Below are positions 5,177 through 13,414 of a stretch of DNA of 13,414 bases, piece after piece. The notes under the pieces are model-generated. The model was given only the letters and a program-made list of their open reading frames with translations. It had not been told where the DNA came from and did not search any database. Position numbers and translations under genes: made by a program. Numbering within the stretch: the first letter of the stretch is position 1; each line of letters opens with the position of its first letter. The DNA comes from Candidatus Hermodarchaeota archaeon (GTDB lineage Archaea; Asgardarchaeota; Lokiarchaeia; Sigyniarchaeales; SOKP01), in NCBI GenBank assembly GCA_048885525.1, contig JBHLLP010000066.1:1-13414 (forward strand), read 5' to 3'.

Positions 5177-5668
5177 ATGAGTCAAAATAAATACGAAAAT
5201 ATTATCTCTCAATTAAAATCTGATTTAAATGCTGAGTGTGCTATAGCAAATAAATATGGAATTATATTAGGATCATTAATAAAGGAATTTACGAAAGGAA
5301 AAGTTATACCTCAAGGGATTTTATCTTTGATTTCCAATTCTAAGGACATAGCGAATGAACTTAATTTAAAAAAAATAACATCCTTTGCGTTGGAATCAGA
5401 AAAATATAATTATTTATTCTCATTTAGTGAAGAATTAATACTTATCTCAAAATTAGATTTAAATGTAAATTTAGCAAAGTTTATGCCAAATATTAGTGCT
5501 TTTTTAAAGAAATTAAATCTGAGTATAAATGAAGAAGACATAAAGAATTTTTCTGTCTTCGATTTTTCAAAAGAAATCACAAAGATTGAAGATACTCTAG
5601 AACGAGATAAAATTAGAAAAAATAAATATTCAATTATTAAGGATTTAGTTAAACACATTTCAAATTAA
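5177..5668 (+). CDS. Roadblock/LC7 (MglB/LAMTOR-like) domain protein with C-terminal helical extension
   Basis: The first ~115 aa follow the Roadblock alpha-beta-beta-alpha-beta-beta-beta-alpha pattern (YENIISQLKSDL / CAIANKYGIILGS / ILSLISNSKDIANELNL / SFALESEKYNYLFSF / LILISKLD / NLAKFMPNISAFLKKL). Immediately upstream of a small GTPase gene. Fold assigned by eye. Confidence 0.7.
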   Translation: MSQNKYENIISQLKSDLNAECAIANKYGIILGSLIKEFTKGKVIPQGILSLISNSKDIANELNLKKITSFALESEKYNYLFSFSEELILISKLDLNVNLAKFMPNISAFLKKLNLSINEEDIKNFSVFDFSKEITKIEDTLERDKIRKNKYSIIKDLVKHISN

Positions 5669-5708: not shown

Positions 5709-7622
5709 ATTTTAAGACAAGTATTTGTTTATAGAAGCAATGAACTTTTATATTATAGACATTTTGGGAAAGCTTTAAAACAGGAAGTATTAGATCTTCT
5801 AATAGAAGATATCATTAATGAAGCACTGATTAGGACTGAATCTAATATAGATTTTCATGATTATTACAAATATAGAGTATCTTTCATTACAGATAAGGCA
5901 AATAATCTCATCTTTTTATTTGTGACAAGTTTATCTGATAAATTTGAGAATATAAAAAAAGAATTGGAAAAATGTAGATCTGAATTCTTAAGTTTATTTG
6001 AAGATATTTTACAACATCGGTTTGATACTAAAACTTTCGAGGTCTTTGATCCTACTATCGATTCTATCCATCGGAATTTACGCCCTAAAATATCTCTAGT
6101 TGGATTTTCTGGAGTTGGAAAAACAACAATTACTAAATTAATCAAAGCTGATGAAATTCCAATGCAACATATACCAACAATTACAGGAGATATTGCAACT
6201 ATAAGAATTGGTAAGCTTCACTTTCATTTGTGGGATTTCGCTGGACAAGAACAATTTAGTTATTTATGGAACAATTTTATAAAAGGTAGTGATGCGGTAC
6301 TTTTAATCACTGATTCTTCATTAGAAAATATTGAAAAAAGCAAGTATTTCCTAGATTTAATAAGAGAGCAAGCTCCGAAGGCTCAAGCTGCGGTAATAGG
6401 AAATAAGCAGGACTTAAAAGACGCGCTAAACCCTGTTCAAATTGAAAAGATTTTGGGTTTAAAAACTTACTCTATGATAGCGTTGGACCCAAATAACCGT
6501 GATAAAATGATTCAAATAATTGCTGATATTTTAGAAATGAGTGCAGAAGTTTCTCCTCTATTGAAGCCCCTTCTTGAGAGAGATAAATTAACAGAGGAAG
6601 CAGTCAGAGCTCTTAAGGATGCTGATTTTAATAAAGCAGCCTTTCTATTTGATAAAATTAGTGATTTATGCATAGAATTAGGAGATGATTCCTTAGGGCG
6701 AGAATTTTTTGATAAAGCACAAAAAATTAAAGATATGCTTAAGGAAGTAGGGGCACCTCCACGTACTCCCGCGACACCTATAGAACCCAAAGAAATGACG
6801 CCTCAAGTAAATCTTGAAAAACCTGAAGAACTTAAAGAACACGTTTCTGTTCCAGAACCAAGAATTTCAGATCAAACAATACAATCTAGCATACCACCTC
6901 AAGAAAAACCATCAATTATTACCCAAAAATTACACACTATACAAAAACCGATTGAAGCACCTAAAGTTGAAAAACCTTCAGAAATTTTAACTTCAGAGAG
7001 AAAAGAAGAAATCTCTGAACTAGAGGCTCAAAGTTTTAAACAAGTTGAACCCTCAATAAAACCAGAAATTAAGCAAGAAACTGTTGGTTTAAAGTTGAAC
7101 CCAGAAGATTTTATGGTAAAAGCTACACCAAAATCTGTAAGTTTTGTCCCTAAAGATGCGAAAGATAAATTGAAAATATCACCGTATAGTCAAGTAAAAA
7201 ATGTGGAAGAATCTAAAGCCTCTGTAGCTGTATCACCATTCAAAATATTAGATAAAAAAACACCTTCAATTCCTCCTTCACCAAAATTACCTGAAATTCC
7301 AAGAGGGCCGCTTGAATCTAAAGAAATAAAAGCTACTCCACAAATTAGTGAAGTAACAAAAGTATCTACACCAATAAAAAGTGAAATTCCAAAAAAACCT
7401 GCTTCAATTGAAACATATCAAAAAGATAATATAAATAAATCATTACTTGATTTAAAAATAAGAAAAGCAAGTATTTCTAAAATGCTTATAGAGCTTGATA
7501 TGAAAGAACTCACGGGGGAAATTACAGCTGAAGAAGCTAGGGAAAAAAAAAAGAAAATTGACTTATTGGTTAATAAAATTGATGGGCAAATCCAAGAATT
7601 ACAAAAGCTTTTAAATGATTAG
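5709..7622 (+). CDS. Multidomain small GTPase: N-terminal longin-like domain + Arf-like G domain + helical bundle + Pro/Glu/Lys-rich linker + C-terminal coiled-coil/SHOCT-like hairpin (~637 aa; ORF track start 5922 is probably internal)
   Basis: G1 GFSGVGKT (6102-6125), G2 HIPTIT, G3 WDFAGQ (6231-6248), G4 NKQD (6402-6413), plus Arf-like LWNNFIKGSDAVLLITDS. The frame is open from 5703 (after TGA at 5700-5702) and reads ILRQVFVYRSNELLYYRHFGKALKQEVLDLLIEDIINEALIRTESNIDFHDYYKYRVSFITDKANNLIFLF into the called V/M at 5922. The GTPase call is firm; the exact start is inferred. Confidence 0.85.
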   Translation: MLRQVFVYRSNELLYYRHFGKALKQEVLDLLIEDIINEALIRTESNIDFHDYYKYRVSFITDKANNLIFLFVTSLSDKFENIKKELEKCRSEFLSLFEDILQHRFDTKTFEVFDPTIDSIHRNLRPKISLVGFSGVGKTTITKLIKADEIPMQHIPTITGDIATIRIGKLHFHLWDFAGQEQFSYLWNNFIKGSDAVLLITDSSLENIEKSKYFLDLIREQAPKAQAAVIGNKQDLKDALNPVQIEKILGLKTYSMIALDPNNRDKMIQIIADILEMSAEVSPLLKPLLERDKLTEEAVRALKDADFNKAAFLFDKISDLCIELGDDSLGREFFDKAQKIKDMLKEVGAPPRTPATPIEPKEMTPQVNLEKPEELKEHVSVPEPRISDQTIQSSIPPQEKPSIITQKLHTIQKPIEAPKVEKPSEILTSERKEEISELEAQSFKQVEPSIKPEIKQETVGLKLNPEDFMVKATPKSVSFVPKDAKDKLKISPYSQVKNVEESKASVAVSPFKILDKKTPSIPPSPKLPEIPRGPLESKEIKATPQISEVTKVSTPIKSEIPKKPASIETYQKDNINKSLLDLKIRKASISKMLIELDMKELTGEITAEEAREKKKKIDLLVNKIDGQIQELQKLLND

Positions 7623-11657: not shown

Positions 11658-12182
11658 TTAAGTTCTAGAGTCAATTATTCGACGAGTTAACTCTGTAAAA
11701 GCTTCATCGACATTAATTCCAGTCTTAGCAGAAGTTTCTATATAAATACTTCCCTCGTTTTCTGCAAATGAACGTGCTTCATCCCGATCTATAACCATGC
11801 CGACATCTTCTATTAAATCATATTTATTCCCAATAAATACAAAAGGAATTTTTTCACCCGCGAACTGTCTTATCTCTGTAAGCCACTTTCTTGTTTCCGT
11901 ATAAGTTTGTTCTCTTGTTAAATCAAAGACTAACAGTGCTCCAGCAGCACCTTTATAAAACGTACTACGGATAAATTCAAATCGCTGTTGACCTCCTATA
12001 TCCCATATAGAAAGTGTTGCTATTTCGCCTTGTCTGAATTCTACATCTTTGGTTAAAATATCTACCCCCACTGTTAATTTGTAATTTGCTTGGAATCTAT
12101 TTTTAATGAATCTCTGAACAAGACTAGTCTTTCCTACAGCAGCCGCTCCAGTCAATAATACTTTTAGTTTAAAACTTGACAT
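11658..12182 (-). CDS. Rab-like small GTPase (Ras superfamily)
   Basis: G1 GAAAVGKTS, G2/RabF1-like YKLTVGVDI, G3 IWDIGGQQRF, RabF4-like FYKGAAG, RabF5-like LVFDLT, G4 NKYD, G5 ETSAK. 174 aa, ending without a Cys-containing tail. Confidence 0.95.
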   Translation of the reverse strand: MSSFKLKVLLTGAAAVGKTSLVQRFIKNRFQANYKLTVGVDILTKDVEFRQGEIATLSIWDIGGQQRFEFIRSTFYKGAAGALLVFDLTREQTYTETRKWLTEIRQFAGEKIPFVFIGNKYDLIEDVGMVIDRDEARSFAENEGSIYIETSAKTGINVDEAFTELTRRIIDSRT

Positions 12183-12244: not shown

Positions 12245-12539
12245 TAATTATTATAATTTCTATTTAAGAATTTATTTAATTTATTTATATGGACTAAATT
12301 AAAGATAAAATAATTTCTGAATTTAAATATTTTTACATAATATAAAACTAGTTTTTATACAATTCTTTGCTATCTAATTTGTATAGATATCTTTTATTCA
12401 AGATTGATAATATTGATAAAAAGGAGAGATAAAGAAGAACATTATTCATCTCCAAATTAGAAGTAAAAATCATAATTCTTAAATGCTACATCAACTCAAT
12501 TTTTTACACTAAACAAAACTGAGAGCTTCACGACCTTTT

Positions 12540-12598
12540 TAACTAATTGATAAATCGATTTATACTTCTAACTAATTGTACCACTAACTACGTTGTAC
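12540..12598. repeat. Short direct repeats (TAACTAATTG x2 plus one degenerate copy) around a 14-bp palindrome
   Basis: TAACTAATTG at 12540-12549 and 12569-12578; ATAAATCGATTTAT at 12550-12563; CTAACTACGTTGTAC at 12584-12598 resembles CTAACTAATTGTAC at 12568-12581. Confidence 0.5.
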
Positions 12599-12655
12599 TG
12601 AAGTGTCACAAGTCATTTTATCTAACCAAATTTGAATGTTTTTTTCCGAAATAAA

Positions 12656-13414
12656 CTATTCTTTTGCTTTCTCGTTAATTTTCTTCTTTTTTTCTACATC
12701 CTCCTTCTCTTTTTTATAGGGTTTTGAAGGTTTAGATTCGTCTAATGGAGTATTGCAAAACCAACACGCATTTTCGAGATTTGCTAAGGTTTCCTCACAT
12801 TTTATGCAGTATAGAGCACCACATTCAGGACAGATATAATTAATTCTTGAGACTCTACCCTTACATACAAGACATATCTTACGCTCTTTAAAAAAAGTAA
12901 TAACTTCTTGTGTAATGTCCTCTTGTTTATATTGAGATACTTTGAACATTTCATCCTTAATTTCTTCTTCTTCCCGTAGGGGTTGTTTAATTATTTTTCC
13001 ATTTGGTGTCTTAGGTAGATCCTCTCGAAATTCTATGTATTTTGGTACTTTAAAATCAGCAAGGTTTTTTTTACAATATTCGATAATTTCTTCTTCAGTA
13101 ATAGATTCTCCTTCCTTCAACACAACTAATGCTTTAGGAAGTTCTCCATAAATTTTATCCCGAACTCCAATAACAGTTGCAAATGAAACTGCTGGATGAG
13201 AGTATAAAACCTCTTCTATTTCACGTGGATAAATATCTTTTTTACGGTCTGTGATGTAGAAAAAACCATCCTCATCCATTAAACCAATATCACCAGTATA
13301 TAACCACCCTTCTTTAATTATTTCTGCGTTAGCTTCAGGATTCTTAAAGTATCCTTTCATAATATTATCCCCTTTAATGACGATTTCGCCCTTTGTATTT
13401 GGTGGAACATCATT
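12656..13414 (-). CDS. Long-chain acyl-CoA synthetase/AMP-binding enzyme (3' part; truncated by window edge) fused to a C-terminal 8-Cys zinc-binding domain; hinge motif partly deleted
   Basis: The frame is open to the window end: NDVPPNTKGEIVIKGDNIMKGYFKNPEA...GWLYTGDIG...DRKKD, YPREIEEVLYSHPAV, FKVPKYIEF, LPKTPNGKIIK (catalytic Lys). It is followed by CLVC/CPEC/CIKC/CWFC. Confidence 0.88.
   Translation of the reverse strand, partial: NDVPPNTKGEIVIKGDNIMKGYFKNPEANAEIIKEGWLYTGDIGLMDEDGFFYITDRKKDIYPREIEEVLYSHPAVSFATVIGVRDKIYGELPKALVVLKEGESITEEEIIEYCKKNLADFKVPKYIEFREDLPKTPNGKIIKQPLREEEEIKDEMFKVSQYKQEDITQEVITFFKERKICLVCKGRVSRINYICPECGALYCIKCEETLANLENACWFCNTPLDESKPSKPYKKEKEDVEKKKKINEKAKE

Follow-up and report, generated by a model that had tools for sequence, protein, structure and literature searches.

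At one end of the DNA analysed here, a single reading frame joins an acyl-CoA synthetase to a cysteine-rich tail. This raises the question whether the two parts were combined by an assembly error, by selection for a link between lipid metabolism and ubiquitin-like signalling, or by a recent rearrangement without such a function.

The fused gene is supported by independent assemblies

The window, i.e. the whole stretch of 13,414 nucleotides that was analysed, is the entire contig C66 of a genome of 3.58 Mb with 29% GC. On its minus strand, a frame is open from the contig end (13414) down to the stop codon at 12656-12658. This segment (12656-13414; 252 codons and the stop) is the 3′ part of a gene for 594 amino acids, the 5′ part of which is located on contig C16 (from about 71355 to the contig end); the two contigs are joined by an exact overlap of 77 nucleotides. 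Within the window, positions 12962-13414 encode the end of a long-chain acyl-CoA synthetase-like part that is probably inactive, with the AMP-binding_C domain at about 13222-12995. Past the A10 motif, with its catalytic lysine codon at 12997-12995, the frame runs on for about 100 amino acids.

The earlier note had named a chimeric assembly as the alternative to a genuine fusion. This possibility was rejected, as the junction is bridged by two error-free contigs that come from further samples of the same study (spanning 12330-13414 and 12439-13414, respectively) and by a contig from a second study that covers 12583-13039 with two differences. Moreover, the identical protein of 594 amino acids is encoded, each time on a single contig, in GCA_048938225.1 and GCA_048886605.1, bringing the number of assemblies to three. 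The fusion is real.

Elsewhere in the window, an Arf/Roc-like small GTPase of 566 amino acids (5922-7622, plus strand) contains a long linker rich in Pro/Lys/Glu, and its C-terminus is coiled. It is preceded by an ORF of 163 amino acids without a Pfam match (5177-5668, plus strand).

The tail is predicted to be a C4C4 RING

The eight cysteine codons of the tail start at 12874, 12865, 12832, 12823, 12808, 12799, 12766, and 12757 (spacing x2-x10-x2-x4-x2-x10-x2), which bears out both the extension beyond the enzyme end and the eight cysteines down to 12755 that had been described before. The putative C4C4 RING-type zinc domain (12755-12874, minus strand) is preceded by a segment that would stem from a 7TM-class donor and represent its cytoplasmic linker and pre-RING helix (12878-12961, minus strand), starting directly after the junction at 12961/12962. 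It is followed by a family-conserved Pro/Asp/Lys/Pro segment and a low-complexity Lys/Glu end (12659-12754, minus strand). Among 116 members of the tail family, six zinc-ligand positions are invariant Cys, and the other two are Cys in 92-97% and otherwise His.

An AlphaFold model built from these 116 members (pLDDT 79) shows a pre-RING helix, two short strands (36-38 and 45-47), and a central helix (48-57). Structure searches (Foldseek, a wide VIA search, and Atlas) returned RING and U-box domains almost exclusively. Nearly all top matches belong to these two classes and extend over 46-54 residues with an rmsd of 2-3 Å and a Z of just 4-5, modest scores that would be expected for a domain of about 50 residues. 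No Foldseek match of the tail was obtained at E<=0.001, no Pfam family reaches its cut-off for the domain, and zinc-ribbon families are not among the leading fold matches of the model. The double zinc ribbon (PF12773) gave sub-threshold Pfam hits in 107 of the 116 members; the model aligns to RINGs over the whole domain. In line with the earlier suggestion of a RING-like domain, the tail is predicted to adopt a C4C4 RING fold with cross-brace topology and is less likely to form two independent ribbons. The likeness to p44/Ssl1, which had been noted as well, holds for the cysteine spacing but is not specific, because RNF4, p44, and RBBP6 lead the profile comparison and the RINGs of RBBP6 and RNF4 score as well as p44 or better.

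Within the family, the loop-1 Val and the helix Leu are conserved, and Trp occupies the position where RINGs usually have Pro. The Arg/Lys linchpin after the last Cys is absent; the fused protein has Asn here, which is also the most frequent residue in the family (Asn 62%, Asp 14%, Glu 7%). RBX1 likewise uses Asn at the linchpin position. The fused copy deviates at only one of 27 conserved RING columns, and its predicted E2-contact residues correspond to the family consensus.

The tail belongs to a lineage-specific family of C-terminal modules

As 17 ORFs of the host genome carry the tail domain (E<1e-3), the eight-cysteine pattern is not a product of chance. The family comprises 936 clusters at 50% identity (E<=1e-10). 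It is present in 55 of the 68 genomes of the same Lokiarchaeia family, and weak matches (E about 1e-6) occur in 9 of 232 other genomes of the phylum; the tail family is lineage-specific and nearly confined to one Lokiarchaeia family. Six tail-bearing contigs are labelled Hodarchaeota or Thorarchaeota (L091, L107, L114, L119, L129, and L138), which may reflect mislabelling or bin contamination, given that the strong matches across the phylum lie in one family.

In all 267 proteins examined, the tail is located at the C-terminus. The listing of their front ends substantiates the statement in the earlier note that the module recurs on many unrelated Lokiarchaeia proteins: 7TM (111 plus 10), 8-9TM (62), and TPR (34) proteins prevail, followed by beta-helix (5), ATC-hydrolase-like (4), and PNPOx-like (2) proteins and assorted singletons. 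The protein studied here is the sole case with a synthetase as front end.

The PNPOx-like domain is joined to the same RING in L003:5461-6192 on contig C7 of the host genome and in P0015, possibly representing a steadier fusion with an enzyme fold than that of the synthetase. The four ATC-hydrolase-like carriers are P0012, L095, L097, and L115. Among the singletons, P0023 (L244:414-1202), P0028, P0122, and P0001 comprise a truncated dehydrogenase joined to part of an arginine decarboxylase, a C_GCAxxG_C_C protein, a short fragment, and a 7TM protein in which two RINGs are arranged in tandem. In addition, contig C19 of the host genome encodes a stand-alone distant member of 68-71 amino acids (L036:2124-2336).

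The RING family is linked to a ubiquitin-E2-E1-JAB operon

One type of E2 is encoded within about 3 kb of 12 of the 110 family loci, typically in the order membrane-RING gene and then ubiquitin, facing E2, E1, and JAB. Conversely, a tail gene is found at a distance of at most 1.5 kb at 16 of the 30 loci of this E2. At the level of genomes, a strong tail copy is present in all 32 that contain the operon E2 and in 4 of the 36 that do not, a contrast for which the p-value overstates the significance since kin genomes are not independent. The difference persists within two large genera and among genomes that are at least 95% complete. In the host genome, the ubiquitin-E2-E1-JAB operon is located on contig C37 (27296-29676; L195) without an adjoining RING gene, at a position where congeners often have a membrane-RING gene; the fused gene lies outside this operon.

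A complex model of the fused protein's tail with the E2 of the C37 operon scored 0.68, compared with 0.15 for the best control; the mark applied was attained by 58 of 80 solved pairs and by 2 of 110 mismatched ones. The contacts agree to at least 83% between runs, the partner pLDDT is at least 82, and the interface comprises helix 1 of the E2 and its two usual loops. The RING half of the fused protein is thereby predicted to bind the dedicated E2 of the lineage, although RING-E2 is a textbook pair that is well represented among solved structures, so that the score may reflect likeness and does not by itself show binding. Taken together, the operon neighbours, the genome co-occurrence, and the complex model uphold, for the family, the proposed connection to the ubiquitin system. 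The tail family probably acts as E3; we grade this activity as no more than probable because of the Trp in place of Pro, the missing basic linchpin, and a complex model that shows likeness.

Closer to the fused gene, contig C16 encodes an E2, an E1-like gene, and a TPR/coiled-coil repeat protein of 2127 amino acids at 59131-69070 (L001, L229), i.e. 2-12 kb upstream. The proximity of the E1-like gene and this different E2, at 9-12 kb, is probably coincidental.

Insertion site and probable donor of the fused gene

None of 119 synthetase homologs at 70-87% identity (the longest of 539 amino acids) is fused to the tail. Likewise, no fusion was detected in 53 congeneric genomes, in which the DNA matches stop at the junction. 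The fused gene resides within an insertion of 2.14 kb between the RACo gene and the gene for a Rab-like small GTPase (11658-12182, minus strand). The latter represents the conserved right flank and directly follows the RACo/ASKHA gene in congeners. The non-coding 3′ end of the insertion covers 12388-12655, with the right border near 12388. RACo and GTPase genes are adjacent, and the site hence empty, in 20 of 29 congeners, and neither a synthetase nor a RING is present at this site in any of the 29. Six congeners (L164, L171, and L174-L177) contain different, unrelated small inserts in the spacer downstream of RACo, which suggests that it is an insertion hot spot.

A 5-bp repeat is found at both borders of the insertion; convincing terminal inverted repeats or a transposase were not detected in it, and a promoter and terminator scan remained at chance level. 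The insertion starts about 70 bp before the fused gene, and its match to the upstream region of the sister gene does not extend beyond about 15 bp.

This sister is a metagenomic gene on JGI contig Ga0452204_282071 with 88.7% nucleotide identity. On the same strand, 124 bp past it, lies a gene whose matches are confined to the main 7TM class of tail carriers; the RING of this gene is assigned from its class, as the contig stops before reaching it. The best match of the downstream gene contains a linker motif which, among 258 family members, occurs in just 3, including the fused protein. Furthermore, the fusion junction shows a 5-nt purine microhomology. A gapped linker score favours the 7TM class (3 of 500 shuffles); an ungapped score did not discriminate. 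Since a synthetase gene lies directly upstream of a 7TM-RING-class gene with the matching linker type, a deletion of about 0.9 kb probably generated the chimera.

The host genome also encodes an intact paralog on contig C13, which is 79% identical to the fused protein, the nearest intact relative reaching about 86%. The C13 copy groups with the copies of congeners and not with the fused one. A recent duplication of the C13 gene was rejected as the source, since the two genes share only 77% of their nucleotides and belong to different clades. The simplest history would combine the deletion route with transfer from another lineage.

The synthetase half has decayed

The earlier note had overlooked that the eight-residue A8 motif is gone from the enzyme part and that the P-loop, encoded outside the window, carries lesions. 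The A8 motif is removed by an in-frame deletion of 24 nucleotides at 13234/13235 (minus strand), flanked by a 4-nt repeat and also present in independent contigs. In intact orthologs, the lost motif occupies residues 409-416, and both of its glycines are gone with it. In the P-loop (A3), we observed the changes T167I, T171N, and G172S; further changes comprise A282N in the adenine loop, G304A, A313V, and the loss of Pro222, and the CoA tunnel is touched as well. By PheA numbering, G304A and A313V are at probable acyl-pocket positions. The lesions fall on the equivalents of Thr161, which corresponds to T167 of the fused protein, Gly166, and Gly409 of CBL, where T161A causes a 2,000-fold loss and G409L abolishes thioester formation (PMC6122825).

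Of 246 columns conserved to at least 97%, the fused copy departs at 26, as compared to a median of 1 and a maximum of 7 in 115 homologs. A first dN/dS estimate of 0.093 was not distinctive, two intact orthologs being at 0.096 and 0.137; when redone with closer relatives, the branch gave 0.169 versus 0.052 (p=3e-7). We infer that constraint on catalysis is gone and that the synthetase half, judged from its sequence, is catalytically dead. The retention of the A10 lysine, the A5 glutamate, and the A7 aspartate speaks for an active synthetase that links lipid activation to ubiquitin-like signalling through its RING, as the earlier note had proposed, and so does a fold that is still recognised by NF004837 (470.7 bits, just below the cut-off of 476 that the C13 paralog passes with 535.7 bits). 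With A8 deleted, three P-loop residues changed, and a lesion load that none of the 115 homologs approaches, we regard such an activity as very improbable. The proposal of a working lipid enzyme or conserved lipid sensor tied to ubiquitin is therefore not supported, as the ATP, acyl, and CoA sites are lesioned and the fusion was found in no other species.

Despite this decay, the frame is open through about 40 excess amino-acid changes, where about 2.9 stop codons would be expected under full neutrality (probability of none about 0.06). Both fixed deletions are in frame, and every indel observed is a multiple of three. The reading frame may still be under some constraint. At the 5′-end, the GTG start codon of the sister gene is replaced by ATT, and a TTA-to-TTG change provides a possible new start five codons past the lost one. 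A further in-frame deletion of 15 nucleotides (13140-13154, minus strand) in a minor contig (depth 6.7 of 18.6, one run) is probably a segregating allele.

These features bear on two alternatives. The insertion could be a silent pseudogene, unexpressed and open only by luck and by ascertainment, given that only open frames were flagged. The lost start codon, the insertion border and the end of the sister match so close to the gene, and the redundancy conferred by the intact paralog and about 17 other synthetases are in agreement with this, and the excess changes would be accounted for if the longer branch had been neutral for about 5% of its length. As 594 codons are free of stops and frameshifts, and as the co-oriented RACo gene upstream could provide read-through, we consider silence unlikely.

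Alternatively, the dead synthetase fold could have been kept by selection as a ligand sensor (for fatty acid, acyl-CoA, or AMP) or as an adaptor for the intact paralog, which it would bind and bring to the RING-E2 for tagging; this alternative appears doubtful to us. The open frame with its indels in multiples of three, a dN/dS of 0.17 and not 1, the possible TTG start, the nearly unaltered RING, and the identity of the protein in three assemblies would fit such a pseudo-enzyme E3. On the other hand, the lesions show no significant clustering in catalytic motifs (p=0.10), and none of the binding sites is spared, since P-loop, adenine loop, CoA tunnel, and probable acyl pocket are all hit. Moreover, the fusion was found in only a single species, in which the additional in-frame deletion seems to be segregating, and the RING is too short, and has no close relative, to reveal selection on it. 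The idea that a dead synthetase was repurposed in one species to serve a soluble archaeal RING E3, with private ubiquitin and E2, as its sensor or as its substrate adaptor hence deserves only tentative consideration, and the same reserve applies to the notion that a newborn pseudo-enzyme ubiquitin ligase has been captured soon after its origin.

Interpretation and significance

With about even confidence, we favour a young, species-private RING-E3 chimera that is probably translated, has a dead enzyme as its front end, and lacks dedicated lipid sensing. The starting point would be a related Lokiarchaeia lineage in which a 7TM-RING gene closely followed a gene for an acyl-CoA synthetase. Deletion of about 0.9 kb, comprising the stop codon of the synthetase, the spacer, and the membrane helices, may have placed linker and RING in frame behind the enzyme. 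Before or after this event, the unit would have moved, as the 2.1-kb insertion, into the site between RACo and the Rab-like GTPase. The host keeps its own intact synthetase. The fused synthetase half would have decayed to a non-catalytic carrier, with the RING half left intact. If made, the protein would bind the E2 dedicated to the lineage and act in an E3-like manner as a soluble protein without an evolved lipid input. Several points stand against this favoured history: dN/dS is still far below 1, the frame that stays open despite the excess changes and two in-frame deletions suggests some selection on the product, the RING downstream of the sister gene is deduced from its class with the contig ending earlier, and the RING is devoid of the Arg/Lys linchpin that matters in the Caldiarchaeum E3 (PMC5654768).

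The fused gene offers a traceable birth of a new family member, with donor arrangement, junction, insertion site, and decay all visible, and illustrates how the RING family acquires new front ends. Citing it as a conserved lipid-to-ubiquitin pathway would be unwarranted. In practical terms, the protein provides a soluble construct for testing the E3 activity of the family and the Trp/Asn motif without a membrane protein. The RING family suggests a layout of one E1, one E2, and many modular E3s in an archaeal lineage, of which we found no description in the literature searched. Likewise, neither the tail family nor the synthetase-RING fusion was found described there, subscription papers being outside the scope of the search.

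Comparison with known RING and synthetase systems

Compared to long-chain acyl-CoA ligases (PF00501 and PF13193; NCBIfam NF004837), the fused protein carries a C-terminal extension of 85 residues together with the P-loop, A8, and start-codon lesions. With respect to its tail, the C-terminal C4C4 RING of TFIIH p44/Ssl1 (PDB 1z60, 8ebs_E; PMC5737387) shares the all-Cys ligands and a spacing within one residue (Z 4.8, rmsd 3.0, 48 residues), and the C4C4 RING of CNOT4 (1ur6) is all-Cys too (NOT4 match: Z 4.0, rmsd 2.1, 49 residues). Dozens of ordinary RINGs and U-boxes match equally well, so that neither of the two matches indicates specific kinship. In addition, p44/Ssl1 has a vWA domain and a zinc finger before the RING, whereas the fused protein has an AMP-binding fold.

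Among the closest known systems are the srfp E3 of the Caldiarchaeum subterraneum Ub-E1-E2-Rpn11 operon (PMC5654768) and the Helarchaeia RING E3 (bioRxiv 10.1101/2023.07.25.550441). They have in common with the tail family the RING fold, genes beside ubiquitin, E2, E1, and JAB, a hydrophobic residue in the first zinc loop, and predicted docking on helix 1 and loops 4 and 7 of the E2. In contrast to these E3s, the tail family is C4C4 and not RING-H2, has Trp for Pro before the last Cys pair closes, and carries Asn instead of the Arg/Lys linchpin, the mutation of which impairs the Caldiarchaeum E3 (PMC5654768). Moreover, a single genome may contain up to about 19 copies of the tail, each as a C-terminal module, and the copy on C66 is, unlike those E3s, fused to an enzyme and encoded outside the operon.
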